A stretch of 53,338 nt of DNA from Hyphomicrobiales bacterium (GCA_016744975.1 JADGDI010000006.1:1-53338), one strand, 5' to 3'. Shown: positions 10,453 to 46,226, counted from the stretch's first letter. Numbers and translations are program-made. The notes: generated from the sequence alone by a model not told the origin.

Positions 10453-10483
10453 AAACTTTTAAATAATACGAGTGATCTCGTTG

Positions 10484-10651: not shown

Positions 10652-10701
10652 AATATACTCCATACACAATATTTAATTTAAGCACCATTCTCTGTCATTC
10701 A

Positions 10702-21551: not shown

Positions 21552-21574
21552 TTAATTTTCTTGACCTTTTTACG

Positions 21575-21645: not shown

Positions 21646-21651
21646 CGATTT

Positions 21652-22728: not shown

Positions 22729-22798
22729 AAGAGTCTCCTATCGACTATATTATGAGAATAATCTGTCTAACGAACAATATTGAATATATAGGTCATAT

Positions 22799-22816
22799 AT
22801 TACAGTTTTATGACAG
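22799..22816 (-). promoter_or_regulatory. Pho box upstream of pstS
   Basis: Minus strand CTGTCAT-AAAA-CTGTAAT, one mismatch to the CTGTCAT-N4-CTGTCAT consensus. Confidence 0.93.
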
Positions 22817-22835
22817 GCTGTATTTATAAAAGATA

Positions 22836-26768: not shown

Positions 26769-26804
26769 TTGCTATTTGCTAATTATAACCAACAGGATAA
26801 GCCA

Positions 26805-28064: not shown

Positions 28065-28147
28065 ATAATTTTTTCCAACATTTTGTTGGCAAGAAGTTAT
28101 TCAGGCAATTTACGAATGTAGTATTCGCTAATAAATTGTCTTAATAT

Positions 28148-28193
28148 TCGTGTTCAAATGCATTGTGGGGGTGCGTTTGAACGCGATTTTTTT
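28148..28193 (+). terminator. Intra-operon terminator or attenuator hairpin
   Basis: TCGTGTTCAAATGCAT pairs with GTGCGTTTGAACGCGA (G-U pairs on the + strand), followed by T7. Confidence 0.7.
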
Positions 28194-28208
28194 GTTTAGA
28201 GCTAGGAG

Positions 28209-29723
28209 ATGTTGATGCATATCAATATATCAAACAAACTGCTACTGTTGATAAGCTTGAGTGCTGTAATCATACCTATTTCAAATTCTACAAATGCTGA
28301 GATATTAACCAAACGCCAACAGCTCGTTGTCCCGACACAAGACTTTAACCAAGCAGAGAAATTTGAGCATTACCCTGGTGGTACAGTTGGTAAATTTATC
28401 AAACAAGGCCGCAAAAGCTTATCGCAACCCTCAGCAGGATTATCTGCAGATGACGCGATGGATTTTAACATTGGCCGCAGCATGTTTAAAAAGCTCTGGG
28501 CGCCAGCGCCTGCGGCAACCCAGGCATCCAATGGTTTGGGGCCATTATTCAATGCTAGGTCATGTTTGTCCTGCCATATCGGCAATGGGCGCGGCCATGC
28601 GCCAGATGTTGGTTTTCCCAATGAAGATGCCAATTCGATGCTCATTCGTCTCAGCATAAAACCGCAAAATAAAGCAGACGAAGCTTTGCTGAAATCTGGC
28701 AAAGTAACTTCCATTAATGAGCCAACTTATGGCGGCCAGTTGCAAGATATTGGTATTACTGGTTTTGCTCCAGAAGGTAAGATATCGGTTAACTGGGCGT
28801 ATAGTTTGGTTGAACTGCAAGATGGACAAAAAGTAGAGCTTAGAAAACCTGAGTTTTCAATCAACAATTTGGCATATGGCCCGATGCATAAAGACATGAT
28901 GCTGTCCCCGCGTATTGCAACGCAAATGGTTGGCATGGGGTTGATTGATACAATTGACGCGTTGGATATTATGGCAAATGCTGACCCAGATGATCTAGAT
29001 GGTGATGGCATATCAGGCAAGGCCAACATGGTGTGGGATGAAGACCAACAAGAAACCATGCTTGGTCGATTTGGTTGGAAGGCAGGGCAGCCCAATTTAC
29101 ACCAGCAAGTTGCTGCCGCATTTTCTGGTGATATCGGCATTAACAGCCCGTTATTCAAAGCGCCATCAGGGGATTGTACGGTAAACCAACAAACATGTTT
29201 GGGCGCGCCAAATGGCAACACAGATATTATGGGGAAATTAGAACTTTCTGAAGAATTACTACGTCTAACCAGTTTTTTCAACGCCAATTTAGCGGTGCCG
29301 CATCGCAAATCAGCAAACCAAGAAAATATCCTATTAGGCAAACAAGCTTTTTATCAATCAGGTTGCATATCCTGTCACAAACCGAAATTTGTCACTGGCG
29401 AAACCTCACCTTATAGCAACTTGTATAATGAGCTAATCTGGCCATATTCAGATTTTCTATTGCATGATATGGGCAGTGGGTTGGCAGATAACCACCCCGA
29501 AGGTAAAGCCACTGGCACCGAATGGCGCACCGCACCATTATGGGCGCTGGGCGATTCTAAATATTTGGGAAAAAGCTGGCAATTATTACATGATGGCCGC
29601 GCCAGAAACATTGAAGAAGCTATATTATGGCATGATGGTGAGGCGTTAAATGCCAAAGAAAACTATAAAAGTTTGAATAAAATTGAGCGGAAAGCACTTG
29701 TTGAATTTGTAAAATCACTTTAG
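28209..29723 (+). CDS. Di-haem oxidoreductase family protein (DUF1111/DHOR)
   Basis: Two CxxCH motifs (CLSCH, CISCH), GLGPLFN, GRFGWKA, LLHDMG, WRTAPLW and LHDGRAR. Confidence 0.93.
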   Translation: MLMHINISNKLLLLISLSAVIIPISNSTNAEILTKRQQLVVPTQDFNQAEKFEHYPGGTVGKFIKQGRKSLSQPSAGLSADDAMDFNIGRSMFKKLWAPAPAATQASNGLGPLFNARSCLSCHIGNGRGHAPDVGFPNEDANSMLIRLSIKPQNKADEALLKSGKVTSINEPTYGGQLQDIGITGFAPEGKISVNWAYSLVELQDGQKVELRKPEFSINNLAYGPMHKDMMLSPRIATQMVGMGLIDTIDALDIMANADPDDLDGDGISGKANMVWDEDQQETMLGRFGWKAGQPNLHQQVAAAFSGDIGINSPLFKAPSGDCTVNQQTCLGAPNGNTDIMGKLELSEELLRLTSFFNANLAVPHRKSANQENILLGKQAFYQSGCISCHKPKFVTGETSPYSNLYNELIWPYSDFLLHDMGSGLADNHPEGKATGTEWRTAPLWALGDSKYLGKSWQLLHDGRARNIEEAILWHDGEALNAKENYKSLNKIERKALVEFVKSL

Positions 29724-29742
29724 AATAAAGGTTAAAAATATA

Positions 29743-30858
29743 ATGGGACATATTATGACATATTACTTTAAACATTTGATAAAAATTAATAAAATTCTAT
29801 TGTTGCCATTGATGTTAATTGGGTTAAGTGCTTCTACGCAGGCAGACGAAGCACTTAGTCGCAAAGTTCACAAACAATTTATTGATCAATATATTTTAGC
29901 AAATTTGGAAATACTTAATGTTGAAGCAACCAATTTTGATGACATCGCTTTGGATGCTTGCAATGAGCAAGAGTTGGGCTTTATTCGTCCCATATTCGAG
30001 CGGACAGTAGCGGCTTGGATGCCTTTGCAATCCTTTAGATTTGATGCGTTTGAAAAAAACAACCGCGCATTACGGATATATTTTTGGCCAAATAGTCGCG
30101 GTGAAAAACAGGTCAAAAAGTTTTTACTAAAAATGGATGCTACAAAAATTACACCTAAATATTTCCCCAATATAAGCGTTGCAGTTCAAGGGTTGCCAAT
30201 TGTTGAATGGTTGCTTTTTCATAAAGACTCGACTTTAAACAGTGCAGATAAAGCCATTAGAACTTATTCTTGCCAATTTTTAAAAGCAATTAGCCTAAAT
30301 ATGAAATTGCTGAGTGAGGCGCTAATCACTGAATTACAGCCATATGGTAAAATGCGGCTAAAATTGTTAAATCCCTCTGCAAATAATGCCGATTATAACA
30401 CCATACCAGAAGTAACATTGCAGTTTTTTAAAGCCATTCATGCCATGGTTGAGTTGGTGCATGGTCAAAAACTAAGTCGCCCAATTGGCAAAGAGTTTAA
30501 CAACTTACGCCCCAAACGGTTCGAAATGTGGCGATCGGGCCTGACTAAAAATAATTTAATGTCAAATATCTCAGCCATTGAACATGCTTATGATATTTTC
30601 TCTCCGCTTATTATTGCAGGTCATAATGGCCAACAGACCAACCAACAAGTCAGGCAAGAATTTGCAGCAGTCATAACGCAAATTAATCTGTTGCCAGATG
30701 ATTTATATCATGCCTTATCGAGCCCAAAAGCCAAAAACACTTGGATATTAGCCCGCGATTTGATTGCAAAATTAGAAAAGTTACAAAAAACCTTGGCAAT
30801 AAAAGTTACCGATGCATTGGGCATTCCGTTGGGGTTTAACGCATTAGACGGCGATTGA
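29743..30858 (+). CDS. Second imelysin-like protein
   Basis: YFWPNSRG, QGLPIVEWLLF (no His in the GxHxxE position) and C-terminal LGFNALDGD. Confidence 0.88.
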   Translation: MGHIMTYYFKHLIKINKILLLPLMLIGLSASTQADEALSRKVHKQFIDQYILANLEILNVEATNFDDIALDACNEQELGFIRPIFERTVAAWMPLQSFRFDAFEKNNRALRIYFWPNSRGEKQVKKFLLKMDATKITPKYFPNISVAVQGLPIVEWLLFHKDSTLNSADKAIRTYSCQFLKAISLNMKLLSEALITELQPYGKMRLKLLNPSANNADYNTIPEVTLQFFKAIHAMVELVHGQKLSRPIGKEFNNLRPKRFEMWRSGLTKNNLMSNISAIEHAYDIFSPLIIAGHNGQQTNQQVRQEFAAVITQINLLPDDLYHALSSPKAKNTWILARDLIAKLEKLQKTLAIKVTDALGIPLGFNALDGD

Positions 30859-30859
30859 T

Positions 30860-31999
30860 ATGCAAATTAGCAGGCGTGGATTACTAAAGTCAGCGGCACG
30901 GCAGGCATTGATCGTGCCCGCCATTGGTCTATTGCCCAATATGGCATGGGCAGAAGACGAAAAGCAGCGCTTGAACGGTCAATATATGTTATGTGCAAAG
31001 CATAGTGACGGTGGGCATGTGGCGGTAAGAATTGGTGGAAATGGCGAAATTATTCAGCAATTTAAATTACAAGATCGCGCTCATGGCCATGCTAAAAATG
31101 CAGCAGGTGATGTGGTTGTTTTCGCTCGACGGCCAGATAATCAGCTCTACCACATTCGCCAAAACGGTTTATTAACCACGCTATATGCACCAACCGGTCG
31201 CCACTTTTTTGGTCATGGTGTATTTTCACATGATGGAAAATTACTGTATTGTGCAGAGAATGATTTTGACCATGAAGACCCAAGGCAAACAGGAAAAATT
31301 GGTATTTGGGATTTGACCAAAGGTTTGAAAATAGGCGAGTTTTTATCAGGCGGCATCGGAGTGCATCAAATTAGACTACTGCCTGATGGAAAGACGTTAG
31401 CGATTGCCAATGGCGGTATTTTAACCCACCCAGATTTGCCAAGGCAAAAACTCAATTTATCCGATATGCGGCCAAATTTAGCCTTGGTAAATGTTACTAA
31501 TGGTGAATTAATCAGCAAACTGACACTGCCAAAATCACTGCACCAATTGTCAATAAGGCATATTGATGTCGCGCTAAATGGCGATATATGTGTTGCGATG
31601 CAATATCAAGGGGCTAAGGCAGATCAGGTTGCACTAATTGCAATGGTTGATAATCGCCGCCAATTAAAAACCCTCTCAATGCCTAATGATATATTGGCAC
31701 AAAATCGCCAATATATTGGCTCAATTTGTTATGACATTAGCGGTCAGTTTTTTGCGGCAACCTCACCTCGGGGCAATTTGGCAACATTTTTTAGCAAAGC
31801 AGGTGACTATATTGATCAATTTAATATACAAGATGTTTGCGCCGTAGCGCCTAGTAAATATGCTGGGAACTTTATTTTAGCTTCTGGTGAAGGTGCGGTT
31901 GTTTCATATAATATCATTAAAAAGACTCATAAAAACCTATTTATTATGCAGGATAGTTCGCCTAAATATCAGTGGGATAACCATATGATGGCAATCTAA
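30860..31999 (+). CDS. DUF1513 beta-propeller protein with Tat signal
   Basis: SRRGLLK twin-arginine signal, FARRP, HFFGHGVFS, ANGGILTHP, LSIRHI and WDNH. Confidence 0.92.
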   Translation: MQISRRGLLKSAARQALIVPAIGLLPNMAWAEDEKQRLNGQYMLCAKHSDGGHVAVRIGGNGEIIQQFKLQDRAHGHAKNAAGDVVVFARRPDNQLYHIRQNGLLTTLYAPTGRHFFGHGVFSHDGKLLYCAENDFDHEDPRQTGKIGIWDLTKGLKIGEFLSGGIGVHQIRLLPDGKTLAIANGGILTHPDLPRQKLNLSDMRPNLALVNVTNGELISKLTLPKSLHQLSIRHIDVALNGDICVAMQYQGAKADQVALIAMVDNRRQLKTLSMPNDILAQNRQYIGSICYDISGQFFAATSPRGNLATFFSKAGDYIDQFNIQDVCAVAPSKYAGNFILASGEGAVVSYNIIKKTHKNLFIMQDSSPKYQWDNHMMAI

Positions 32000-32382
32000 T
32001 CGAACCTAAATATCAAGCATTTAATATTGATTGTTACGGTTAAAAACGCTTAATTGCCGCACTTTATAAGCCATTGGCAGCTTGTTGGATTCTTTCCACA
32101 ATTTTTTAACTAAATTTTTGTTTAGACCTAAATCGGGCAAAATTTTTGATAAACTATAATTATAAGCTATGCTTTTTTTGCATATAGTTTGTGGAACCCG
32201 ACTTAACGGTAGTTGCGGGTAATGGAATTTAAATATTGTTTTTATCCGGTTTAAAGTGGTTTCTACTGTAAATTGGCCAAAAATGACGGCTGTGGGGCTA
32301 AACTATCTAAAGACAAGCGAATATTGGTTTGAAGAAAATAGACAAATAGAAATATTTTTGCTAGTTAATAGCCATAAGATTG

Positions 32383-32398
32383 TGGCATGGGTAATGCA
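32383..32398 (+). promoter_or_regulatory. Sigma54 (-24/-12) promoter
   Basis: TGGCATGGGTAATGCA has the correct GG-N10-GC spacing against the consensus TGGCACG-N4-TTGCW. Confidence 0.7.
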
Positions 32399-32693
32399 TA
32401 TTATGCATTTAGCATGCGTCCATAGGCAATTTGGTTTACGATAAACCAAAAGATGCAATGCAACATGGGTGAGTTTATTAATCACCACAATTATTATCTG
32501 ATTGGTTGGGATATTTCTGAAACCAAACCCATGACCAGATGAGCTTGACTGTATCGGCGCTAGGCTATTGCGCCACTGATAAAAGTCTGAGCAAATGTTA
32601 TAGAATTTATGCAGTTTGATATGCTTTTATTTGGGCATTATTCACTGTCTATCGCTAAGAAAAATAGAATATCTTGGTAGAAGGAAGAAATGG

Positions 32694-35600
32694 ATGAGTA
32701 ATTTTGATACTGATTTTGTTGCTGATGTTGAAGATCGTAAATTATATGATCATGAGAAATATAGCGATAGTTGCGGCGTAGGCTTCATCACCAACAAAAA
32801 ATCCATTCAAAGCCATGATATTTTAGTTAAAACTCATGAAGCATTATGCACCATTCCCCATCGGGGCGGCATGAGCGCTGAAGGCATTGGCGATGGCGCT
32901 GGGGTGAATATAGATTTGTCGCAACGGTTTTTTCGCAAATTAACCCAAGATAATAAACTTGAATTGGGTCAATTTGCAGTGGCAAACTTTTTCCTGCCCA
33001 AAGATTCAAGCTTTGATGATGATGCCGTAAGTTTGGTTGAAGAAAAGTTACGAAAATTCCGGTTTCCGATTATCATGTGGCGCGATATGCCCGTTAATAA
33101 CAGCATTTTAAGTGACGCATCTGTGCGCGCTCAACTTTCAATCAAGCAAGTGATATTTGAGCGCTCTAGCAAATTAGCGGATGCTAGTTGGCACGAATTT
33201 GATATGGAAATTGCCCGTTGTTTGGCGGCTATTGAAGGTGAATGTTATGACATTAGCGAATTAGATGGTTTTTACCCCTGCTCCATGTCTGCACGCACAC
33301 AAGTGCTAAAGGGGCGATTAAATTCCAACGAGGTCATCCCATATTTTGAAGATTTACGTGACCCTGACCATGAAATTCATTCAATATTTTTTCATACCCG
33401 TTATTCAACCAATACAGAGCCTGCTACCATGATGGCGCAACCTTTTAGGCGCATGGCACATAATGGCGAACTAAATACCGATAAGAAAAACCGCTTATCT
33501 GAAGCGTCAATTGCCAAACAACAAGGCCGAAAATTAAATTTCCCCAAAGGCCAAAGCGACAGTGCGCGGCTTGACCAAACCATTGCACGGCGCATTGTCG
33601 ATGATGGTTACACCGTGGTTGAGGCAATTGTCGCTATGATGCCCCCTGCGTGGGAGAACCAAACCAATATTGACCCTAATATAAAGGCAATGCTCGAATA
33701 TTTCAGCCTTTATGAAGAGAAAAATGACGGCCCAGCAGCGATTATATTTGGCAATGGTCAATATGTTGGTGCGCGGCTTGATCGCTTGGGTTTGCGCCCA
33801 CTTCGCAGCGTTGAAACGGAAGATTATCTTGCGGTTATGTCTGAGGCAGGGCAAATTAATTTCTCTGCCGAAACGATTTTAAACCGAGGCCGTATTGAAG
33901 CGGGTGACATGCTGTTTTGGAGCCATGTTGAAGGCCGCGCCTATACAGGTGTGCAATATTTAACCAAACTGGCAGCCCGCCATGACTATATTGCCATGCT
34001 GAATGCCGCAAAAGTTGATATTGAACATCTTGAAACTGCCGATGAAAGCTTGCTTGGCAAAAATGATGATCTTAGCCTTGACCAGCAACATATTGCATAT
34101 AGTTTAAATGATGAGAGCTTTCGGTTTTTGTTAGACCCAATGTTGCAAAATGGCGCTGAACGCGTTTACGCAATGGGTTATGGCTTAACCCCTAATGCCT
34201 TGTCCAATAAAGAAGGCGGTATGAGCCAATATTTTAGTCAGAGATTTGCTCAAGTCACCAACCCGCCATTAGACAGCATTCGTGAAGCCGACGGCATGAC
34301 GTTAAGGGTTGCTTTAGGCGGTAAGCCGGGTTTTGTTGAAGGTCAGATGCAAATCATTTTGCAATCGCCTATATTATTGCAACAAGACTTAGCCAAATTA
34401 TTATCGCAAAAAACCGTTGCAACGCGGGTGCTAGACATTAGTTTTAACCCCAATTATGAGCAAGAAAGACGCAATGCTAGCCGTTTGGAATTAGCCATTG
34501 ATGAATTATGCGACGAGGTAGAGGCAGCAGCGCGGGATAATGTTGGCATTATCATTTTAAGCGACCGCAAAATTTCCGTAAAAAAAGCAGCTATGCCATT
34601 GCTTTTATGCATCGCAGCTGCCAATCAAAGGCTGATTAAATGTGGTTTGCGCTTCAACTCAAGCATTGTGGTTGATAGCGGCCAGTTGGTATCCACCCAC
34701 GATGCCGCAACGGCATTAGGCTTTGGTGCATCGGCACTATTTGCACTTACTGCACAAAATCGTGCAGGCCAAATGGATGCTGAAAATCAAACAAATTTGA
34801 TGAAGAATTTCAAAAAATCGATTGAAAAATCTCTAATGAAAACCATGGGTAAGTTTGGTTTATGTACTGCTGAAAGCTATATTGGCGGTGAATTTTTTGA
34901 AAGTAGCTTTTTAGACACCAAAGAGCCGCGCCTAAAACGCACTTTCCCACATATCGATAGCCCCGTGGGCGGTGTGCATTTTAGTGATATTGCCACTTCT
35001 GCAGCAAAATGGCATCATCAGGCTTGCCAGTTAGACGGTGAAAATATGCCAAATATTGGCCTATTTAAAGAGCGTGGTGATGGTGGTGGCCATAGCTTTG
35101 GCGTGGCATCGGTGCGTGAATATGGCCATATGTTAGATGAAAAGATCACTTATATAGAACAAGATGAACCGACGCATTTGCGCTTGTTGGGTGATGAGGC
35201 AGATGAATTGGGTTCCGATTTAGCCTATCGTGATTTTGGTTATGAAGCCCGCAGCCCTGAGCAAATTGATGCCCATAAAATTACCCAAGGCTATCATCAA
35301 TTTAGCCAAGAAATGCAAAAAGAACGGATGCAGCGCCCTGCAACTTTGCGTGATGTGATGGCTTTGCCTGTAGATGTATCAGATGCCCAAACGCGTGAAG
35401 AATTTGACCAGATTTTAGGCGCTCAGCATATTAAGGGCAATTTAAACTATTTTATTTGCGGTTTGGTGATTGCCCCTCAAAGTTCCGGTATTTATAAAAT
35501 TTCATTTGCGAATGACGCTGATGAGAAAAATAATGCAAAAAACAACTCCCGCAGCCGCTTAAAGCAGCTGGCCGAGCATTTTAAAGCGCGTTTCTCTAGT

Positions 35601-38225
35601 GCCGATTATAAAATTAAAGTTCAAAGCGACCATCTATATGTCGCAGCGGCTCATACATTCTTACATTATCTTAGCCAAATAAAGACAGCGCCTGGCGCTA
35701 TAGGGCTTGATAAGGTGCAACCAGCTCATCAAATTACGCGCTACTTCTCCTCAGGTGCTATGAGTTATGGAGCGCTTGTCAAGCCCGCCCATCGCGCGGT
35801 TGCGCAAGGCACAAACATTGTTGGCGGCCTATCGAATTCAGGTGAGGGTGGCGAGGAGTTTGCTCGTGCTAACTCTATATTATCCAGCCGAATAAGGCAA
35901 TTTGCTTCAGGCCGTTTTGGCGTTTGGGCAGGGTATTTGGCCGACCCGCTACTTGAAGAAGTTGAAATTAAAATCGCCCAAGGCGCGAAACCTGGCGAGG
36001 GTGGGCAGCTGCCCGCCAAAAAAGTAACCGTAGAAATGGCATCAATGCGCGGCGGTACACCAGGTGTTGAACTGGTTTCACCGCCCCCACATCATGACAC
36101 TTATTCGATTGAAGATTTGGCGCAATTAATCCATGATTGTAAAGCCACGCGCCGCAGGGTGATCGTTAAATTAGTATCCTCAGAAGGCATTGGCACTATT
36201 GCGGTGGGTGTTGCCAAAGCAGGTGCCGATGTGATTAATGTTGCTGGCGGCACAGGCGGCACGGGCGCGGCGCAAGTTACCAGCTTAAAACATACTGGCC
36301 GTGCTGCTGAAATTGGCATTGCCGAAGTGCATAAAGCATTGTCGCAAAATGGCCTGCGCGATAAGGTTATCCTACGCACCTCTGGCGCACATCAGATTGG
36401 TTTAGACGTGGTTAAATCTGCAATTTTAGGTGCAGATAGTTTTGAATTTGGCACGGCAGCATTGATGATGCTTGGTTGTGTTCAGGCCAAAACTTGCAAC
36501 ATTAAATGCCCTGTCGGTCTGACCACAAACCCAGAAGTTTATGACGGCGATGCCCGCATTCTGGCACAATATTATATGAGCCTTGCCCATGAAGTGCGCC
36601 AAATATTAGCTAAAATCGGTGCTGAAAGCTTGGCTGCCATTCGTGGTCGCACCGATTTACTGCATTTGCTGGACCATGATAAAATGGTTGGCGCGTTAGA
36701 TTTACGCGGCCTATTGCAGCAAGTGCCTATCGTTAAAATTGACAAGCCGATTTATATTGAAGCAGAGTTTAAACATGATGATAAGGCTTATGCTCTTGTT
36801 CAGAAACATATTTTTTCTGGCGATGTGGCTAACATTAACATTGACGGTAAAAAGTGGCGCTTGAATAACCGCCATAAAACCGTCGGTGGGCAATTAGCCA
36901 TTGATATAGAACGGGCGCTAAATCATGAGCTTGATGATGGTGCACGCAGCAAAATTAAATCATTATACCGTGGACATAATGGCCGTTATCATTTGGGTGA
37001 AAATACTGTTAACATTATCACGACAGGCAGTGCAGGGCAAAGCTATGGCGCATTTAACATTGTCGGCATGAATTTGTGCCATCAAGGCACCTGCAATGAT
37101 GGCGTAGCGAAAGGCATAAGCGGCGGCACCATTGCTGTAACGCCACCCAAAAATGACGGTGTAAAGCTGGGTGTTCAAAATACATTGATTGGTAATTTTG
37201 CATTATTTGGCGCCACTGGCGGCATGGTATTTATCAACGGTGAGGCGGGAGATCGCTTTGCTGTGCGTAATTCAGGCGCGATGTCGGTGGTTGAAGGCGT
37301 GGGAGATTTTGCTTGTGAATATATGATCAATGGCATGGTGCTCAATATAGGCACTTATGGCAAAGGCTTTGCCAATGGCATGTCTGGCGGTAATGCATAT
37401 CAATATGACCCAGATAAAAAGTTTGAGCTTCTGCATGATGCCTCATCCATCCGCTATGGCTATTTGAAAGATGAAGGCTCCGTAACAAAAGACGAGGTTT
37501 TAGCGCATCAAGATATTGTAAAATATATGCTGGAGCAGCATATTGAGGCCACACAAAGTGCCCATGCAAAACAATTATTAGCCAATTGGGATATAGAAGC
37601 AGCTAATTTTGTTTATATGCAACCATTGGCGCTCGAGCAAACCCAATCTGCAAGCCACTTAGAAACACTTGGCCGTAAAACTTTGGTGGAAGAATTAAGC
37701 CATGCCATGGCAGAATATCAGATTAAGCCATTGCGTGACGCATTTACACAAGGCAAAGCTGTGTTAGCGGGGCGTGTGCCAGCCTATCAAGAAGTGGATA
37801 CTGAGCTGAGTTTTGAATTGCTAAACGCTTATGGCGTGATGCGCATTGCCAAACAAGTTGTACATTCGTTGGCCAAAAAACAAGGCGTTGAGGTGAACCC
37901 AATATTTGAAACCAAAGCCGCTAAAAATTTGGTTAAAACCGAAGATTACGCCCTTGTTGATGCCCTTGCTAAAGAATGTAAAAAAGCACTTGATAAATTT
38001 AGTGAGCAAGAATTGGCCATCATGCTGGCTGATAAACGCATTCGGGATTATAAAAAGAGCTTAATTTTGCGCGACGTGCAATCAATCTACTCGATGGGGT
38101 CAATGGCATGGATTATCGCACAAGATCGCCAAAACCGTGAAAAGATGGGACATATCCCAGATTTTAGCGAAACATTAGCTGAACAATTGGTAAAAACTAT
38201 GTTAAAAGCCAAGCAAGCAGCGTAA
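32694..38225 (+). CDS. Divergent, enlarged glutamate synthase large-subunit homologue (1843 aa)
   Basis: Propeptide then CGVGF (Ntn amidotransferase Cys), HNGELNT, FAQVTNPPLD, FMN barrel (GAMSYG, AQGAKPGEGG, SPPPHHD), Cys triad CVQAKTCNIKC and a C-terminal GXGXG beta-helix. ATG 32694 preferred over TTG 32616. Symbol withheld because of the divergence. Confidence 0.9.
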   Translation: MSNFDTDFVADVEDRKLYDHEKYSDSCGVGFITNKKSIQSHDILVKTHEALCTIPHRGGMSAEGIGDGAGVNIDLSQRFFRKLTQDNKLELGQFAVANFFLPKDSSFDDDAVSLVEEKLRKFRFPIIMWRDMPVNNSILSDASVRAQLSIKQVIFERSSKLADASWHEFDMEIARCLAAIEGECYDISELDGFYPCSMSARTQVLKGRLNSNEVIPYFEDLRDPDHEIHSIFFHTRYSTNTEPATMMAQPFRRMAHNGELNTDKKNRLSEASIAKQQGRKLNFPKGQSDSARLDQTIARRIVDDGYTVVEAIVAMMPPAWENQTNIDPNIKAMLEYFSLYEEKNDGPAAIIFGNGQYVGARLDRLGLRPLRSVETEDYLAVMSEAGQINFSAETILNRGRIEAGDMLFWSHVEGRAYTGVQYLTKLAARHDYIAMLNAAKVDIEHLETADESLLGKNDDLSLDQQHIAYSLNDESFRFLLDPMLQNGAERVYAMGYGLTPNALSNKEGGMSQYFSQRFAQVTNPPLDSIREADGMTLRVALGGKPGFVEGQMQIILQSPILLQQDLAKLLSQKTVATRVLDISFNPNYEQERRNASRLELAIDELCDEVEAAARDNVGIIILSDRKISVKKAAMPLLLCIAAANQRLIKCGLRFNSSIVVDSGQLVSTHDAATALGFGASALFALTAQNRAGQMDAENQTNLMKNFKKSIEKSLMKTMGKFGLCTAESYIGGEFFESSFLDTKEPRLKRTFPHIDSPVGGVHFSDIATSAAKWHHQACQLDGENMPNIGLFKERGDGGGHSFGVASVREYGHMLDEKITYIEQDEPTHLRLLGDEADELGSDLAYRDFGYEARSPEQIDAHKITQGYHQFSQEMQKERMQRPATLRDVMALPVDVSDAQTREEFDQILGAQHIKGNLNYFICGLVIAPQSSGIYKISFANDADEKNNAKNNSRSRLKQLAEHFKARFSSADYKIKVQSDHLYVAAAHTFLHYLSQIKTAPGAIGLDKVQPAHQITRYFSSGAMSYGALVKPAHRAVAQGTNIVGGLSNSGEGGEEFARANSILSSRIRQFASGRFGVWAGYLADPLLEEVEIKIAQGAKPGEGGQLPAKKVTVEMASMRGGTPGVELVSPPPHHDTYSIEDLAQLIHDCKATRRRVIVKLVSSEGIGTIAVGVAKAGADVINVAGGTGGTGAAQVTSLKHTGRAAEIGIAEVHKALSQNGLRDKVILRTSGAHQIGLDVVKSAILGADSFEFGTAALMMLGCVQAKTCNIKCPVGLTTNPEVYDGDARILAQYYMSLAHEVRQILAKIGAESLAAIRGRTDLLHLLDHDKMVGALDLRGLLQQVPIVKIDKPIYIEAEFKHDDKAYALVQKHIFSGDVANINIDGKKWRLNNRHKTVGGQLAIDIERALNHELDDGARSKIKSLYRGHNGRYHLGENTVNIITTGSAGQSYGAFNIVGMNLCHQGTCNDGVAKGISGGTIAVTPPKNDGVKLGVQNTLIGNFALFGATGGMVFINGEAGDRFAVRNSGAMSVVEGVGDFACEYMINGMVLNIGTYGKGFANGMSGGNAYQYDPDKKFELLHDASSIRYGYLKDEGSVTKDEVLAHQDIVKYMLEQHIEATQSAHAKQLLANWDIEAANFVYMQPLALEQTQSASHLETLGRKTLVEELSHAMAEYQIKPLRDAFTQGKAVLAGRVPAYQEVDTELSFELLNAYGVMRIAKQVVHSLAKKQGVEVNPIFETKAAKNLVKTEDYALVDALAKECKKALDKFSEQELAIMLADKRIRDYKKSLILRDVQSIYSMGSMAWIIAQDRQNREKMGHIPDFSETLAEQLVKTMLKAKQAA

Positions 38226-38251
38226 AGAATAAAAATCTAATAAGGTTAGAT

Positions 38252-39994
38252 ATGTCTGAAAAAAGTAAAATTGATCACCCGTTTAATGAAGATCAACAAC
38301 AATGGTTGAGCGGTTTTTTTGCTGGTGCAAATACGCGCCTGTTGCAAGATGGCGGCCAAGAGCTTAGTAATCTACGCCCGTTAACTGTGCTGTTTGGAAC
38401 ACAAACAGGCAATAGCGAAACCATTGGCGAAGGCATTATATCGATGGCCGCTGACTATGGCTTAAGCGCAACTTTGGTCGATATGGACGATTTGGAAGTT
38501 GAAGATTTAGCTAAAATTGAACGCTTATTACTGATTTGTGCTACCTATGGCGAGGGCGAAATGCCTGATAATGCTGAAATATTATGGGAGGCGATCAGCG
38601 AAGATGATGCGCCAAGGCTTGAAGCTACAAATTTTTCAGTACTGGCATTAGGTGATAGCTCTTATGATGACTATTGTAAAGCAGGCATAGATTGGGATAG
38701 CCGCTTAGCTGAGCTTGGCGCTAAGCGCATTCATAACCGCGTTAATTGCAATGTAGATTTTGAAGATGATGCCGATAAATGGTGTGCTGCTGCCTTAGAT
38801 GCCATTAAAGACACGGGTTCTGCCCCAGAAGCAGGCGCGGCAATTACTGCAAAACCAACATTAAAAGCAGGAGCCAGTGACAAACCAAAATATGACCGTA
38901 AAAACCCATTCCCTGCTACCATGCTTGTTAATCGCCGCATATCTGGTGAAAATTCGAGCAAGCAAATCATGCATTATGAGCTTAGCTTAGCGGGTAGTGG
39001 CCTTCGCTATGAGGCAGGCGATGCGCTTAATATTATTGCCCAAAATGACCCAGAATTGGTGCAGTTAATTTTGGCACATTTAGGCCTAAGCGGTGATGAA
39101 ATGATCGATGGCTTAAAGCTTAAAACAGTTTTGCAAAATTTTTATGATATTAAATTGCCAACAGGCCCGTTCTTAGATGCTGCAGCTAAAAAATCAGGCG
39201 ATGAAGAATTAAATCGCTTGCTTGAAAATGCCGACAGAGAAGCCTTGAATGCCTATCTATGGGGTCGTGATGTGTCTGATTTTATCATCGATTTAAAACT
39301 AACCTTTGGCGCAGATGAATTTGTGCAATTGTTGCGCAAATTACAACCGCGGGCTTATTCCATCTCAAGTTCTGCCAAAGCCCATCAAGATGAGGTGCAT
39401 CTGACCATCAGTTCTGTGCGTTATAACAGTTTTGGCCGCAAACATGAAGGTTTGGCCTCTTGTTATTTGGCCGACCGTTTGGGGAAGAATGGTAAAGTCG
39501 GGGTATATTTTAGCCCCAATAAAGCATTCAGAGTGCCCAATGATGGTGATTTGCCGATCATTATGGTTGGCCCAGGTACTGGCGTTGCGCCATTTAGAGC
39601 CTTTTTAGAAGAGCGCGAAGCAACGGGCGCAACAGGCGATAACTGGCTAATTTTTGGCGATAGAAACGCCAAAGACGATTATATCTACCAAGATGAGATT
39701 GAGGAATGGCAAAAATCAGGACTTTTAAACAAGCTAGATTTGGCATTTTCGCGCGATCAGGCGGAGAAAATCTATGTTCAAACCCGCATGAAAGAAAATG
39801 GCGCAGAGCTGTTTAACTGGCTTGAACGCGGTGGTTATTTTTACGTTTGTGGTGACGCAACCTATATGGCCAAAGATGTTGACCAAACTTTGCAAGATAT
39901 TATTGCAGAACATGGAAAACTTGACCCAGCAGGGCTAAAAGATTATATGAATAGCCTAAAAAAATCCAAACGTTATGTGCGTGATGTTTATTAG
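38252..39994 (+). CDS. NADPH-dependent diflavin (FMN/FAD) reductase, sulfite reductase flavoprotein CysJ-like
   Basis: Flavodoxin motifs GTQTGNSE, TYGEGE and LGDSSY; FAD motif PRAYSISS; NADPH motifs GPGTGVAPF, AFSRDQ, KIYVQ and YVCGD; ends RDVY. Confidence 0.93.
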   Translation: MSEKSKIDHPFNEDQQQWLSGFFAGANTRLLQDGGQELSNLRPLTVLFGTQTGNSETIGEGIISMAADYGLSATLVDMDDLEVEDLAKIERLLLICATYGEGEMPDNAEILWEAISEDDAPRLEATNFSVLALGDSSYDDYCKAGIDWDSRLAELGAKRIHNRVNCNVDFEDDADKWCAAALDAIKDTGSAPEAGAAITAKPTLKAGASDKPKYDRKNPFPATMLVNRRISGENSSKQIMHYELSLAGSGLRYEAGDALNIIAQNDPELVQLILAHLGLSGDEMIDGLKLKTVLQNFYDIKLPTGPFLDAAAKKSGDEELNRLLENADREALNAYLWGRDVSDFIIDLKLTFGADEFVQLLRKLQPRAYSISSSAKAHQDEVHLTISSVRYNSFGRKHEGLASCYLADRLGKNGKVGVYFSPNKAFRVPNDGDLPIIMVGPGTGVAPFRAFLEEREATGATGDNWLIFGDRNAKDDYIYQDEIEEWQKSGLLNKLDLAFSRDQAEKIYVQTRMKENGAELFNWLERGGYFYVCGDATYMAKDVDQTLQDIIAEHGKLDPAGLKDYMNSLKKSKRYVRDVY

Positions 39995-40382
39995 TTAGTG
40001 CGCTGGGCTAGTCACCAAGCCAAATAACAAAATATCAATATTTTCTGACAGCCAAAAATTTCGGTATTTGAGGTTGCCAATAATATTTTCTTCGACATTT
40101 TTGTCTAAAAGCGATGCATGCAAAATCTGATTGCCCAATCGATCAAGCAAAAAACCCGGTATCATTACAATATTTAACGTTGGGCGCAAATGCCCTGCTT
40201 GCTTGCAGATAGCGAGGCGGCGATGGGGGATATGTTTTCTGGTTCTGAAATCACCTCCATGAAAGACGTCGTAAACGCGTATTGCCATTGTGTTATGGGG
40301 CAATTGAATGAGAAAATTTTAAGGCTTTACCGATCAATCTAATAGTTAGGCGGAAGTAATTATATGGTTTCCGCCCAATATG

Positions 40383-40913
40383 CTAAAGAATATCAAATTC
40401 TTGATAAATAATTCCATTATCGTGAATTTTAGTATCCGTTAAATTGGCGGAAATTCTTGTGCCATTGCCACCAAATAATTGAACACCATAACCTAATAAA
40501 ATGGGCGCACGCTTTAACCGTAATTTATCAATAGCATTGTTCGCAAGTAACCAACCTGCCAATTCGCCACCACCACACAAATAAATTGGGGCAGAACAGT
40601 TTGCCTTGAGCTTGTCGATTTCGGTTAAGATGTTGCTCGATATTTGTTTAACATCGGAATTTGAAGGCAGTTTGACAGAACTAGAAACAACTAAAGATTG
40701 CATACTAGGATATGGGTTTTGACCTGCTTCTAAACCATATTGATAGCCAAACTCATAGGTATTTCGACCCATGATGCAATGCGAATAAATTGATAGGCGT
40801 GCTATATAATCATCGACAATACTGCCTTGATGTGGGAATAGCGAAATATCGCCCTTAATGCCAGAAATAAAGCCATCTGCTGAGACCGCGACATCGTAAA
40901 TAAGAGGTTGCAT
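40383..40913 (-). CDS. Dihydrofolate reductase-like (RibD C-terminal domain) protein
   Basis: AVSADGFI, IMGRNTYE, IYLCGGGELA and PILLGYGVQLF. Confidence 0.9.
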   Translation of the reverse strand: MQPLIYDVAVSADGFISGIKGDISLFPHQGSIVDDYIARLSIYSHCIMGRNTYEFGYQYGLEAGQNPYPSMQSLVVSSSVKLPSNSDVKQISSNILTEIDKLKANCSAPIYLCGGGELAGWLLANNAIDKLRLKRAPILLGYGVQLFGGNGTRISANLTDTKIHDNGIIYQEFDIL

Positions 40914-40988
40914 AAATGCTCCTGATAATAATTGAATTTATTGTTTAATATTTTCAATTATTTGTTCATTATCAGGATCCTCCTATTT

Positions 40989-41022
40989 TTGACTATTTTA
41001 ACTTGCATGTTAAGATTGTCAA
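40989..41022. promoter_or_regulatory. 34-bp palindromic promoter/operator
   Basis: TTGACTATTTTAACTTGCATGTTAAGATTGTCAA pairs at 14 of 17 positions. The minus strand reads TTGACA-N16-TAAAAT towards the DHFR-like gene. Confidence 0.75.
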
Positions 41023-41025
41023 GAT

Positions 41026-42468
41026 TTAGATATGGATGGCGTGACCAAGTGCGGCCATGGCGCTTTCCATAAAAGCTTCATTCATGGTAGGGTGCACATG
41101 AACGGTGTCTGCAATATCCTCTAACCGTGTACCCATTTCGAGCGCCAACGCAAATTCCCCGCTCATTTCACTAATATGCGGCCCAACGGCTTGAATGCCA
41201 ATAATCACATGATTATCCGCCCGCGCAACCACCCTGATAAAGCCGCCCTCTTTGCCAATTTGTTGCGACAATGCGCGGCCATTGGCTGCTAGCGGAAATT
41301 TACCAATTTTAACCTCAATATTTTGTGTTTTGGCATCATTAGGCGACAGGCCAACGCTGATAATCTCAGGCTCAGTAAAGCAAATTGCCGCAATCGCAGC
41401 TGGTTCAAATTTTCGTTTTTGACCTGCAATAATCTCGGCCACCATTTCGCCTTGTGCCGAAGCCTTATGCGCTAACATAGGCTCACCAACAATATCGCCA
41501 ATTGCCCAGACATTGCGCATGCTGGTATGGCATCGCGCATCGACTTTAATGAAGCGGTTATCATCAAGCAGATCAACACCCATTTTATCCAGCCCCCAGC
41601 CATTCAAATTGGCTTGCCTGCCGACCGTTACTAGAATTTTATCCGCATCAATGATTTCAACCTTGCCATCTTTGGTTTCAAATTCAAACTCACCATGCTT
41701 GTTTAACCCCTTTGCCTTGGCATTTAAATGCAGCGCAACATCATGGGATTTTAACCAATTGGCAACGGGGCGGGTTAGCGCTTTATCAAAGCTTGGTAAT
41801 ATTTGCTTGCCCGCTTCAATGAACGTTACCTCACTGCCAAATTTTGCAAAGGCAATGCCCAATTCTAGGCCAATATAGCCCGCGCCAACCACTATTAATT
41901 TGTTTGGCAACTGTTTAAGGTCAAGCGCTTCGGTAGAGCCGATGACTTTGCCGCCAAACGGTAAAAATGGCAGCTCTGTGACTTTTGAACCGGTTGCTAA
42001 TATCACATGTTCAGCAGTGATTTTAAATTCTTCAGCCTCACCATTGGCGTTAGAAGTTTTAACCACGCATGTTTTGCCGTTTCGAAATGTTGCCCAACCA
42101 TGCACTATTTGCACATTGGCTTTTTTAAGCAGCATCTTAACACCGCCGCTTAATTGTTTAACAATGCCGTCTTTCCATGCGGATGTTTGGCTTAAATCTA
42201 AACTTGGTTGATGGCTTAAACGAATACCCAACTCACCGTCAACATTTGTGGCAATTTGCTTAATCTCATCAAATTTACTGGCGGCGTGGATGAGTGCCTT
42301 GGAGGGGATGCACCCGCGGATTAAGCATGTACCGCCAAGTTTTTGGTCTTCTACCAAAATAACATCGAGGCCTAGCTGACCTGCTCTTATGGCCGCCACA
42401 TAACCACCAGGGCCACCACCAACCACTAAAACTTGGCAATTTTTACGGCTTAAATTGACATGTGTCAT
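41026..42468 (-). CDS. lpdV: Dihydrolipoamide dehydrogenase (E3) of the branched-chain 2-oxoacid dehydrogenase
   Basis: GGGPGGY, redox disulfide GGTCLIRGCIPSK, GAGYIG and HPTMNE; last gene of the bkd operon. Confidence 0.93.
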   Translation of the reverse strand: MTHVNLSRKNCQVLVVGGGPGGYVAAIRAGQLGLDVILVEDQKLGGTCLIRGCIPSKALIHAASKFDEIKQIATNVDGELGIRLSHQPSLDLSQTSAWKDGIVKQLSGGVKMLLKKANVQIVHGWATFRNGKTCVVKTSNANGEAEEFKITAEHVILATGSKVTELPFLPFGGKVIGSTEALDLKQLPNKLIVVGAGYIGLELGIAFAKFGSEVTFIEAGKQILPSFDKALTRPVANWLKSHDVALHLNAKAKGLNKHGEFEFETKDGKVEIIDADKILVTVGRQANLNGWGLDKMGVDLLDDNRFIKVDARCHTSMRNVWAIGDIVGEPMLAHKASAQGEMVAEIIAGQKRKFEPAAIAAICFTEPEIISVGLSPNDAKTQNIEVKIGKFPLAANGRALSQQIGKEGGFIRVVARADNHVIIGIQAVGPHISEMSGEFALALEMGTRLEDIADTVHVHPTMNEAFMESAMAALGHAIHI

Positions 42469-43814
42469 GCGCCATCTCCCATAAATAATGTTGCAGGTAC
42501 TTCAAGTAAGCTTTTAATATATTGAATCATTAATGCCCCATCATAACCATCAACAATCCTATGATCAAACGAGCCAGAAATATTCATCATTTTACGAATG
42601 ACAATTTCACCATTGATGACCATCGGTCGTTCTACCAACTTGTTATTGCCAATGATGCACACTTCAGGGGCATTGATGATCGGCGTGGTAACAATGCCGC
42701 CAATTTTTCCCAAACTGGTTACTGTAATGGTTGATCCAGTAAGTTCATCACGCGCTGCGCTGCCGCTTCTGGCTTTTTTAGCGAGCTCTTGTACTTTGCT
42801 TGCATATTGCCAAATATCTAAACTTTCAGCATGTTTGATCACAGGAACCATCAGCCCATTTGGGGTATTGGCCGCCATGCCGACATGCACCGCATCAAAT
42901 TGGGTAATCATGCCTGTTTCACTATTATAATGAGCATTGCATTGGGGGTATTTAGCAGCTGCTTTAACAATTGCCTTCATTAAAAACGGCAGTAAAGTGA
43001 GCTTTGGCTGATCAAGCCCATCTCCTGAACAAGCGCGGCGCTCGGAATTTAACTGCCCACGCAATTTTTCCAAATCGGTTAGATCGACTTCCTCAACATA
43101 GGTATAATGCGGAATATTGCGTTTTGAAAATGCCATAGCTTCGGCGATTTTGCGCCGGATACCGCGCAGAGGAATTTCTTTTACCCCTATTTTCTTCAGC
43201 CCAGATTTTGAAGGCTTTGCGACTCTAGTTGCACCATCGGTTTTAGAGCGGCGATCGACATTCGAGATATACGCCCCGCCAGATGCGATAAACCCATTCA
43301 AATCATCATGGGTTAAACGCCCAGCTGGCCCAGAGCCAACAATTAAACCCAGTTCAATATTCAATTCTTGCGCGCGGCGACGCAAGGAAGGTGATGCCAA
43401 AATATCGGTATTTATAGGCGGCTCATCGGTATTTATAGACGGCTCAATTGTAGTTCTTGCAGGAGCAGAAGACGCTTGCATGGGTGTGACAGCTTCTACG
43501 GTTTTGGTTTTTGGACTGGGTTGAGTGTTGGTTTTTTGGTTAGGTTTAATGTCTGAAGGTTGCGCAACTCCGCCCTCAACGTCAAAAGCAATTAAAACAC
43601 TGCCAACATTGACAATATCACCCACATTACCTGCAATTGAGGTGACAATACCATCGACAGGTGAAGGCAGTTCAACGGTGGCTTTATCGGTCATCATGGC
43701 GATAAGAATGTCATCTTCTTCGATTTTTTGGCCAAGCTTCACATGCAGTTCTACAATCTCTGACGTCACAACCCCTTCACCAAGGTCGGGTAATTTAAAT
43801 TCATATAGTGCCAT
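42465..43814 (-). CDS. bkdB: Branched-chain 2-oxoacid dehydrogenase E2
   Basis: Lipoyl domain MTDKAT, E3-binding ASPSLRRRA and catalytic FDHRIVDG; ATG 43814 with GGAGG RBS. Confidence 0.93.
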   Translation of the reverse strand: MALYEFKLPDLGEGVVTSEIVELHVKLGQKIEEDDILIAMMTDKATVELPSPVDGIVTSIAGNVGDIVNVGSVLIAFDVEGGVAQPSDIKPNQKTNTQPSPKTKTVEAVTPMQASSAPARTTIEPSINTDEPPINTDILASPSLRRRAQELNIELGLIVGSGPAGRLTHDDLNGFIASGGAYISNVDRRSKTDGATRVAKPSKSGLKKIGVKEIPLRGIRRKIAEAMAFSKRNIPHYTYVEEVDLTDLEKLRGQLNSERRACSGDGLDQPKLTLLPFLMKAIVKAAAKYPQCNAHYNSETGMITQFDAVHVGMAANTPNGLMVPVIKHAESLDIWQYASKVQELAKKARSGSAARDELTGSTITVTSLGKIGGIVTTPIINAPEVCIIGNNKLVERPMVINGEIVIRKMMNISGSFDHRIVDGYDGALMIQYIKSLLEVPATLFMGDGA

Positions 43815-43816
43815 TT

Positions 43817-44830
43817 TCAAGCCTCCATAATGCGGTTAATGGCATCAACAACACGGTGTGGCCCAGGGAAATATTCCCATTCAAACGCGTGCGGGTAAGG
43901 TATATCCCAGCCCGTTACGCGCTCAATTGGGGCGCGTAATTTCCAAAAACAATTTTCTTGAATAATCGATAATATTTCGGCTCCGAAACCACCTGTCTTT
44001 GTTGCTTCATGCGCAATGAGGCAGCGGCCTGTTTTGTTAACGCTGTTGATAATGGTATCATAATCAATCGGTGATAAGGTTCTAAGGTCTATAATCTCCG
44101 CATCAACTCCAGTTTGTTTAACCGCCGTTTCAACCACGTGTACCATGGTGCCATAGGTGATAATGGTCATCGCATCGCCGCTGCGGCAAATATCAGCCTG
44201 ACCCAGTGGAATGCTATAATAACCTTCAGGCACTTCGCCTTTATCATGGCTATCCCAACCAACAGAGGGTGTGTCAGGGTTACCGTAAAACGGCCCATTA
44301 TAAAGCCTTTTGGGTTCGAAAAACAATACAGGGTCATTGCTTTCAATTGCGCTGATTAACAAGCCCTTGGCATCATATGGGGTCGATGGCATGACCACTT
44401 TTATGCCAGAAACATGGGTAAAAATCCCTTCGGGGCTTTGGCTGTGAGTTTGTCCGCCGCGAATGCCGCCCCCGCAAGGTGTGCGAACGGTAATATTGGT
44501 TGAAAATTCACCCCCGCTTCGGTAGCGCAAGCGCGACGCTTCGGATACAATTTGGTCAAAGGCTGGGTAAATATAATCGGCAAATTGAATTTCAGCCACA
44601 GGCCGGATGCCGTTAACGCTCATGCCAATCGCGGTGGCAATAATGCCATTTTCTGAAATTGGCGTATCAAATACCCGCTCGGTTCCAAATTGTGATTGCA
44701 GGCCGTCAGTCGCGCGGAACACCCCGCCAAAATAACCAACATCCTCACCGAAAATCATCACTGCATCATCACGTTCTAACATGATTTTTTGCGCCGATAA
44801 AATTGCTTCTAACATATTCATTTGTGCCAT
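43817..44830 (-). CDS. bkdA2: Branched-chain 2-oxoacid dehydrogenase E1 beta
   Basis: GEDVGYFGGVFRAT, EIQFADY, GGQTHSQS and FFEPKRLY. Confidence 0.95.
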   Translation of the reverse strand: MAQMNMLEAILSAQKIMLERDDAVMIFGEDVGYFGGVFRATDGLQSQFGTERVFDTPISENGIIATAIGMSVNGIRPVAEIQFADYIYPAFDQIVSEASRLRYRSGGEFSTNITVRTPCGGGIRGGQTHSQSPEGIFTHVSGIKVVMPSTPYDAKGLLISAIESNDPVLFFEPKRLYNGPFYGNPDTPSVGWDSHDKGEVPEGYYSIPLGQADICRSGDAMTIITYGTMVHVVETAVKQTGVDAEIIDLRTLSPIDYDTIINSVNKTGRCLIAHEATKTGGFGAEILSIIQENCFWKLRAPIERVTGWDIPYPHAFEWEYFPGPHRVVDAINRIMEA

Positions 44831-44832
44831 TT

Positions 44833-46098: not shown

Positions 46099-46226
46099 GT
46101 TGCCCTCATTCAAACCTTAATAATAAGACATAATAGCTTACCTAAAAGAAACAGCTTCCCTAATTGACTTGTCGTTGATATTATATTGGAACAGAATCAC
46201 GAAAATATAATAAAAAAGAGAATGAT

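Follow-up and report, generated by a model that had tools for sequence, protein, structure and literature searches.

A long-form GltB encoded next to a CysJ-like diflavin reductase: a probable NADPH-dependent glutamate synthase of undescribed subunit composition

Introduction

Glutamate synthase (GOGAT) is one of two enzymes that bring nitrogen into biomass in most bacteria and plants, and its classes are defined by the route along which electrons reach the large subunit, i.e. the NADPH-dependent GltBD, the ferredoxin-dependent GltS (Fd-GltS) and the eukaryotic NADH form. The enzyme makes two glutamate from one glutamine and 2-oxoglutarate at the expense of a reductant. Here we describe a gene pair found in a 53,338-nucleotide stretch of DNA from a Hyphomicrobiales bacterium (GCA_016744975.1, JADGDI010000006.1:1-53338; the whole stretch is referred to below as the window). 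The pair consists of a gene for a GltB homologue of unusual length, here called the long form, and a gene for a CysJ-like diflavin reductase. Judged from sequence comparisons, the two proteins probably form a two-subunit NADPH-GOGAT of undescribed subunit composition, in which the diflavin reductase stands in the place of GltD.

It is useful to compare the pair with the described systems that come closest to it. The GltB/GltD enzymes of Azospirillum (1ea0, 2vdc, 6s6s) and Bacillus subtilis (7mfm) have the same four domains in the large subunit, the same Cys nucleophile motif and cluster cysteines and the same domain for flavin mononucleotide (FMN), and the overall reaction as well as NADPH as the ultimate donor are presumed to be common to both. 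The long form differs from them in its diflavin partner, in an insert of about 100 aa, in an extension of about 190 aa, in the CX5CX3C spacing of its cluster cysteines and in forming a separate clade, and the genome of the window is without GltD. GltS (Synechocystis, 1llw and 1ofd) is similar in as much as its large subunit works without GltD and a one-electron carrier reaches the [3Fe-4S] cluster; in the long-form pair the part of the ferredoxin would be taken by the flavodoxin-like FMN domain of the reductase. Unlike GltS, the long form has no counterpart of the GltS stretch at positions 910-938 (see below), and its presumed donor is encoded by a neighbouring gene for an NADPH-linked reductase, as opposed to a soluble photosynthetic ferredoxin.

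The second point of comparison is CysJ/CysI of the E. coli type (CysJ chains 6efv, 9c91 and 1ddg). The reductase has the same three domains and the same C-terminal motif, and the logic, electrons supplied by a diflavin reductase to a metallo-flavo/haem enzyme, would also be the same. However, the reductase of the window is linked to GltB and scores under the cysJ cut-off, and its genome is without a CysI-type haemoprotein. The next-best solved relatives of the reductase, at E-values of 1e-75 and weaker, are cytochrome P450 reductase, P450 BM3, nitric-oxide synthase and methionine synthase reductase; in those systems a module of FMN, flavin adenine dinucleotide (FAD) and NADPH domains likewise gives single electrons to a separate centre, but it is haem or cobalamin enzymes that receive them.

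In public records the large subunit is named "glutamate synthase-related protein" or "large subunit", and the reductase "sulfite reductase subunit alpha" or "flavodoxin domain-containing protein". A full-text literature search, with most subscription journals outside its coverage, returned no glutamate synthase as acceptor of a diflavin reductase and no GltB-diflavin or GltB-CysJ enzyme. As for the organisms that carry the pair and their relatives, a metagenome-assembled genome (MAG) of Methylomarinum without gltD is described in a passage that does not comment on a replacement (PMC12160114), a figure legend elsewhere lists gltDB (PMC6474228), and Methylococcus capsulatus Bath is shown in a further report to possess both gltB and gltD (PMC10623323).

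The gltB-reductase pair

The long gltB gene lies at 32694..38225 on the + strand; according to the map of open reading frames (ORFs) and the translation it starts with the ATG at 32694, ends with the stop codon at 38223-38225 and encodes 1843 aa. There is an in-frame TTG upstream at 32616, but the alignment of homologues from the same genus begins at residue 1 of the protein as translated from the ATG. After a spacer of 26 bp (38226..38251), in which a purine run, AAGG, precedes the next ATG by 9 nt, the reductase gene follows on the same strand at 38252..39994; its 580-aa product has an N-terminal segment followed by FMN/flavodoxin, FAD and NADPH domains, as delimited by Pfam. These ORFs and domains confirm the initial annotation, which was made from the sequence alone and described a GltB homologue of full architecture followed after 26 bp by a complete FMN/FAD/NADPH diflavin reductase. 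Its further statement that the window contains neither gltD nor a sirohaem subunit also holds, in that the Fer4_20 profile has no match genome-wide and the NIR_SIR profile matches only on two other contigs (C116 and C71); small ferredoxins, which it had likewise listed as missing, were not searched for.

The long gltB is preceded by 694 bp of intergenic DNA (31999..32693, + strand, from the ORF map), presumably its promoter region. In a scan of positions 31800-40500 no terminator-like site was listed within the 26-bp spacer, and over the scanned region both sigma-70-like sites (26 versus 22.2 +/- 4.6) and terminator-like sites (14 versus 10.3 +/- 3.1) were at the level of shuffled sequences. 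The two genes are presumably co-transcribed; a search for RNA sequencing runs that contain the locus returned none.

Features of the large subunit

The 1843-aa protein contains the Pfam domains GATase_2 (27-432, E 5.2e-90), Glu_syn_central (465-737, 1e-71), Glu_synthase (974-1310, 1.8e-106) and GXGXG (1419-1586, 2.1e-47). It narrowly misses the cut-off of the NCBIfam model PRK11750 for the glutamate synthase large subunit (1038.9 bits versus 1047), because the alignment splits around an insertion. The same split is seen in phmmer comparisons with solved GltB chains, which give E-values from 1e-232 to 1e-220 in two pieces (query 16-806 and 1003-1653); the gap in the query between 806 and 1003 corresponds to positions 805-849 of the solved chains, and the alignment stops about 190 residues short of the C terminus of the long form.

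The long form thus has two family-specific additions. The inserted segment, about 100 aa in length, falls at the start of the FMN-binding domain and was delimited by the gap against solved GltBs (residues ~880-1004, 35331..35705, + strand); its structured core, around residues 889-1001, is predicted to be a small alpha/beta domain. Modelled alone, this domain reached a pLDDT (predicted local distance difference test) of 83.1 and a pTM (predicted template modelling score) of 0.76 (AlphaFold2, alignment A5), and a Foldseek comparison with the PDB gave 0 matches at E <= 0.001, the best TM-score being about 0.38. The second addition is the C-terminal extension of about 190 aa (residues ~1645-1843, 37626..38222, + strand), placed there by the alignment to solved GltBs, which ends near residue 1653. 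The extension is helical in a partial model, with a block pLDDT of about 70-89. Note that this partial model of residues 740-1843 is poor as a whole (mean pLDDT 54.4, pTM 0.38), and the additions are not placeable in it relative to the cluster. The extension is rare: among 1.84 billion cluster representatives only 75 proteins matched at E <= 0.001, and these were mostly fragments.

The catalytic and cluster residues are retained in the long form. The CG[VI]GF motif is found in 59/59 long forms of the family and in 4/4 further lineages. In the window protein it reads CGVGF and its cysteine is Cys27, the presumed N-terminal nucleophile by its position in the motif (codon 32772..32774, + strand). 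In N-terminal nucleophile amidotransferases a propeptide is cleaved to expose the Cys nucleophile, and by analogy a 26-residue propeptide would be removed ahead of Cys27. The core of the FMN domain is conserved in the long forms along with the catalytic and the cluster cysteines. As judged by alignment to solved GltBs, the three [3Fe-4S]-type cysteines are Cys1262, Cys1268 and Cys1272 (36477..36509, + strand), and the loop between the second and the third is one residue shorter than in the solved proteins. This difference is consistent: the spacing is CX5CX3C in 63/63 long forms (59/59 family members and 4/4 of the further lineages) and CX5CX4C in 13/13 GltD-linked GltBs, i.e. 12/12 that were compared and the canonical copy of genome G367, so that both spacings occur within this single genome.

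The solved Fd-GltS chain 1llw has at positions 910-938 a 27-residue stretch, which we take to be the ferredoxin loop; it has no counterpart in the long form, where 4 residues are found instead, and by that criterion the long form is not of the GltS type.

Some of the genomes with a long form also encode proteins of 518-558 aa that consist essentially of a Glu_synthase FMN domain, without an amidotransferase domain (G042:C1:2195194-2196114 and 1818422-1819504; G045:C43:68798-69778; G003:C2:94312-95250).

The CysJ-like reductase

The 580-aa protein has the Pfam domains Flavodoxin_1, FAD_binding_1 and NAD_binding_1, and its nearest solved relatives are the E. coli-type CysJ chains (E 4.5e-123, aligned over residues 42-580). 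It scores under the cut-off of the cysJ model TIGR01931 (616.7 versus 668.15 bits), as does the GltB-linked copy of genome G041 (643.4), while the CysI-linked copy of G042 reaches 777.7. Six residues, S500, R501, D502, Q503, K506 and Y508, are invariant in alignment A4 (34 sequences) as part of the motif FSRDQ..K.YVQ, and the C-terminal RYVRDVY is present in 59/59 family members; these six positions and the C-terminal aromatic residue are presumably the NADPH determinants, as in other diflavin reductases.

In the reductase tree the GltB-linked reductases, 23 in number, group together in a single clade (SH-aLRT 100, stem 1.11) that is nested among the CysI-linked CysJ proteins of gammaproteobacteria, and on the evidence of this tree the GltB-linked family arose from CysJ and then specialised. 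G042 is an instructive case, as it encodes a second CysJ homologue besides the one downstream of the long gltB. This second protein is 45% identical to the first, is the copy that exceeds the cysJ cut-off, and its gene overlaps that of a true CysI (861.7 bits). More generally, 9/10 of the other near-full-length CysJ homologues in a class sample of 121 genomes adjoin a CysI homologue.

The initial annotation had proposed that the genome be checked for a separate cysJI, and the only sulfite reductase haemoprotein found is NirA-like and not of the CysI type. On the CysI model, which has a cut-off of 756, the haemoproteins of G041 and of the window's genome lie at 52-120 bits, and the two fragments in the latter are at 52-58. 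These fragments represent one NirA-like haemoprotein that is split over two contig ends (C116:2-964 and C71:1114-1845, both on the - strand). The piece on C71 is followed by a 200-aa ORF and then by an ORF resembling PAPS reductase, and the last ~40 residues of the frame on C116 are unlike the reductase. The only other flavodoxin/FNR-type reductase found in this genome is a membrane protein on contig C149 (L005:1-2004, + strand), in which a PepSY_TM region is fused to flavodoxin, FAD_binding_6 and NAD_binding_1 domains.

Conservation and joint inheritance of the pair

The C-terminal extension was scanned against species-representative genomes, and the best 80 of 146 confirmed stretches were analysed as loci. 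Some are from MAGs labelled Hyphomicrobiales or Alphaproteobacteria, which represent the window's genus and show about 80% identity; the identity is about 70% in the loci from Methylophaga and about 57% in those from Methylococcales. The latter include Methylomonas, Methylobacter, Methylomicrobium, Methylotuvimicrobium, Methylomarinum and Methyloprofundus, and among the carriers are Methylotuvimicrobium buryatense 5G and several Methylomonas strains.

A CysJ-like gene is found downstream on the same strand in 78/80 loci. As for the two misses, one locus (L067) ends 29 residues into the CysJ-like gene, and in the other (L079) the contig ends after an unrelated ORF of 168 aa. Both genes are complete in 58 loci; among these the spacer measures 12-219 bp, mostly about 70-140, in the 48 from Methylococcales, and 8-66 bp in those from the genus and from Methylophaga. 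One Methylococcales MAG (L086) stands apart, with a spacer of 1922 bp (~1.9 kb) that holds two same-strand ORFs of 312 and 204 aa at 9443-10965. The same arrangement is found in 2/2 metagenome loci of a 51%-identical relative, and in a phylum sample of 401 genomes there are four further carriers, belonging to three families, with the reductase gene directly downstream in 4/4. The pairing, the conservation of which the initial annotation had proposed to check, is thus kept across distant homologues, and no other neighbour is common to the loci of different lineages.

Both genes tell a concordant evolutionary story. In the GltB tree, 23 long forms constitute one clade that is split from 12 GltD-linked GltBs with an SH-aLRT of 100. 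In both the GltB and the reductase tree, the alphaproteobacterial genus and Methylophaga are joined with a support of 100 and are together sister to the Methylococcales clade, and several inner groups are also shared. This agreement indicates that the two genes travelled together, including between classes. The tree and the scoring of neighbours that had been proposed at the outset speak for the pairing, as do the other comparative checks that the initial annotation had called for: the long forms are a separate clade with CysJ-like neighbours, and the linked reductases are a clade apart from CysI-linked CysJ.

The named carriers of the pair are users of methane or methanol. A link to methylotrophy as a rule was considered and dropped, since the window's genome (95% complete) gave no match for a PQQ (pyrroloquinoline quinone) alcohol dehydrogenase and the four further lineages carry the pair.

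Presence and absence of GltD

The window's genome (2.77 Mb, 95% complete) encodes a single GltB, the long form, and is without any match to Fer4_20, the profile taken to indicate GltD. The check for a separate canonical gltBD, also proposed by the initial annotation, thus turned up neither gltD nor a second gltB. There are three glutamine synthetase genes; the only ELFV-dehydrogenase match lies in a 1622-aa ORF, and a glutamate dehydrogenase (GDH) of the small anabolic type was not found in this genome.

Similar results were obtained in more distant carriers. Five genomes (Methylomonas, Methylotuvimicrobium, Methylobacter, Methylomicrobium and Methylophaga) have no Fer4_20 match over the cut-off and no other full-length GltB; three of the four Methylococcales genomes among them are titled complete chromosomes. 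In the order of G041 the long form is carried by 24/101 genomes, and a strong match to the GltD model TIGR01317 occurs in 0/24, two of these genomes having only a match of 1e-44 in a 563-aa paralogue. The other 77/101, among them the unpublished genome G080, all have a GltD match at E <= 1e-101, 64 of them over the cut-off and the remaining 13 from a second GltD type; the latter adjoins a gltB of canonical length in the two cases inspected. In the window's order outside the genus, the long form is present in 0/33 genomes and Fer4_20 in 32/33.

Within the genus, G001, G003, G004 and G007 have no GltB besides the long form. A candidate GltD in the relatives G001, G002 and G003 was rejected, as their Fer4_20 protein adjoins PreA and is PreT-like; the Fer4_20 proteins of the genus members G006 and G007 are outside this individual check of PreA neighbours.

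Proposed enzyme and alternative explanations

On these grounds we propose the following working model. The 1843-aa protein would be the catalytic subunit, with its glutaminase domain, its ammonia-tunnel/central domain and a synthase domain with FMN and [3Fe-4S], and the 580-aa reductase of the CysJ family would replace the iron-sulfur flavoprotein GltD. Electrons would pass from NADPH to FAD and on to the FMN of the reductase, and from there, one at a time, to the [3Fe-4S] cluster and the FMN of the GltB synthase site. At this FMN, 2-iminoglutarate, which arises from 2-oxoglutarate and the ammonia released from glutamine, would be reduced, and the remainder of the reaction would proceed as in other GOGATs. 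We further propose that the features peculiar to this GltB, namely its inserted alpha/beta domain, its helical C-terminal extension and its shorter cluster loop, are adaptations of the large subunit to its new partner. Physical binding, the direct step from FMN to the cluster and the specificity for NADPH are the parts of this model that we infer.

In a wider sense, it seems fairly likely to us that the pair represents a further class of GOGAT, in which a CysJ-derived reductase serves as an iron-free input subunit and directly feeds the [3Fe-4S]/FMN centres of a remodelled large subunit. This enzyme would be the sole GOGAT of the Methylomonas/Methylobacter/Methylotuvimicrobium group, of Methylophaga and of the window's genus, its genes would be a two-gene cassette that moves between classes, and in some bacteria it would be an isozyme beside the canonical enzyme.

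A complex of three chains, i.e. the C-terminal extension, the inserted domain and the reductase, was also predicted, with weak support for binding. The score was 0.33 (runs 0.46, 0.27 and 0.33), the best of 3 controls reached 0.00, at least 42% of the contacts are common to the runs, and the pLDDT of the partners is at least 80. In the calibration the mark was reached by 58/80 solved complexes and 2/110 mismatched pairs, and at 0.60 or under by 7/80 solved complexes and by both passing mismatches; the prediction made here differs from the calibration in using its own alignments and three chains.

A number of observations weigh against the proposal. The complex prediction is no more than a weak pass, by which the odds of binding rise only slightly, and the poor partial model of GltB yields no docking geometry. 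The 24 long-form genomes in the order of G041 are kin and probably make up one or a few clades, meaning that the split of 24 and 77 is a pattern and not 101 independent observations. One member of the window's genus, G002 (94% complete), is without the long form and without any GltB over the cut-off, and it keeps PreT/PreA; either the assembly lacks the region or this organism makes its glutamate in another way. A further point comes from two genomes of one genus, G367 and G407, which have a GltD over the cut-off (650 and 646 bits, respectively). Here a canonical gltB (with CX5CX4C in G367) overlaps gltD by one base, and the long pair lies downstream on the same strand, at a distance of 460 bp in G367 (tandem modules at C1:511000-528000, L128) and of about 890 bp in G407 (L129). 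We read this tandem as two GOGAT modules side by side, an arrangement that fits an isozyme. It follows, nevertheless, that the long form does not replace GltD in every case, and in G367 and G407 it may use GltD. The suggestion of the initial annotation that the reductase is present "instead of GltD" is thus correct for the window's genome and for 24/24 long forms in the order sample, all without GltD, but it does not extend to G367 and G407. Adjacency, lack of GltD and the separate clade speak for a functional pairing in GltD's place, and the coexistence with GltD in these two genomes speaks against it.

The last of these observations concerns the partner. In the window's genome and in 4/5 of the named genomes (G041, G043, G044 and G045) the GltB-linked reductase is the sole CysJ homologue and a NirA-like haemoprotein is encoded elsewhere in the genome, so in such single-copy genomes the reductase may have a second client. 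One could go further and regard it as a general NADPH-driven donor of the flavodoxin-like kind with several clients, for example the NirA-like sulfite/nitrite reductase as well as GltB, GltB then not being a dedicated partner; the descent of the family from a CysJ that serves CysI and the weakness of the complex prediction would fit such a role. We consider this unlikely, though, since adjacency to gltB and to nothing else has persisted through at least six lineages and through a transfer from class to class, since G042 retains a separate CysJ for its CysI, and since the haemoproteins of the window's genome and G041 fall so far below the CysI cut-off. NirA-like enzymes are, moreover, widespread in bacteria without any CysJ. 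Another explanation would be that the long GltB is a ferredoxin- or flavodoxin-dependent GOGAT that acts alone like the cyanobacterial GltS, with the reductase regenerating the carrier or being unrelated. A large subunit without GltD is indeed the hallmark of Fd-GOGAT, and the public record of one family member (P0062) is entitled "Glutamate synthase (ferredoxin)". But the long form is without the 27-residue stretch of Fd-GltS, the diflavin reductase already has a flavodoxin-like domain of its own, and conserved adjacency on the same strand together with a joint phylogeny is unexpected for an unrelated neighbour, which makes this explanation quite improbable.

We give very little credence to the idea that the long form is a GltB-derived enzyme for some other substrate, served by the reductase and the extra domains, with glutamate being made otherwise. 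The score just under the NCBIfam cut-off, the NCBI name "glutamate synthase-related protein", the additional domains without a recognised fold and the coexistence with canonical gltBD in G367 and G407 could all be cited for it. Yet complete genomes of Methylomonas, Methylobacter and Methylomicrobium, like the genome of the window, encode no GltB homologue but the long form and are without GltD; the window's genome also has its three glutamine synthetase genes and no match for a small anabolic-type GDH. The catalytic and cluster cysteines and the core of the FMN domain are conserved, and in G367 and G407 the long form lies directly beside canonical GOGAT genes, as would be expected of an isozyme. 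The two-subunit NADPH-GOGAT with a diflavin input subunit therefore remains the reading that we prefer.

Genomic context and regulation

Upstream of the pair there is a four-gene cluster on the + strand (26769-31999) that encodes an imelysin (Peptidase_M75), a di-haem oxidoreductase (DHOR), a second imelysin and a DUF1513 protein, and ends 694 bp before gltB. We take clusters of this type to be iron-regulated iron-uptake operons, and the initial annotation had used the proximity as an argument for iron saving. That argument fails on comparison, as imelysin/DHOR genes accompany the pair in 1/3 of the full-length genus loci and in 0/35 of the others. Control of the long gltB by iron or NtrC found no support either. 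Upstream of 60 long gltB genes the mean best match to a Fur box was 11.58 of 19 versus 11.56 in shuffled sequences (a 19-bp consensus was used, and alphaproteobacterial iron regulators are outside it), and the strict sigma-54 pattern had no match in the same 60 upstream regions.

Some other genes of the window were also noted. Histidyl-tRNA synthetase (151-1743) lies beside a pilus/secretion cluster on the - strand (1792-9735) with T2SSF, a T2SSE ATPase, an AAA_31 protein and a secretin with a pilus-N domain, which resembles a Tad/Flp pilus locus. Two permeases of the phosphate-ABC type (DUF3333/DUF3708 and BPD_transp_1) and a HisKA/HATPase kinase at 18866-24107 (- strand) are probably a pst-pho region. 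Convergent with the pair, the genes at 40383-46113 (- strand) encode a RibD_C-domain protein, dihydrolipoyl dehydrogenase, an E2 acyltransferase and a transketolase-like E1 beta subunit, and they are an operon for a 2-oxoacid dehydrogenase complex.

Biological significance

If the proposal is true, a class would be added to the known GOGATs, and it would follow that the cluster of the large subunit can be served by a flavodoxin-like domain. There would also be practical consequences. Annotations would have to be corrected in thousands of entries, in which the proteins are at present labelled "sulfite reductase subunit alpha" or "glutamate synthase-related protein", the cofactor bookkeeping of nitrogen assimilation would be set right in the metabolic models of industrial methanotrophs, and a spurious CysJ would be removed from the sulfur pathways of methanotrophs. 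GltD carries FAD and two [4Fe-4S] clusters, so a diflavin reductase in its place would save these two clusters; iron saving as the rationale of the swap is plausible but speculative. The pair may be looked upon as a natural experiment on the exchange of an iron-sulfur subunit for a flavin subunit, for which iron economy, oxygen tolerance and a preference for NADPH are candidate reasons, and genomes of the G367 type hold both modules.

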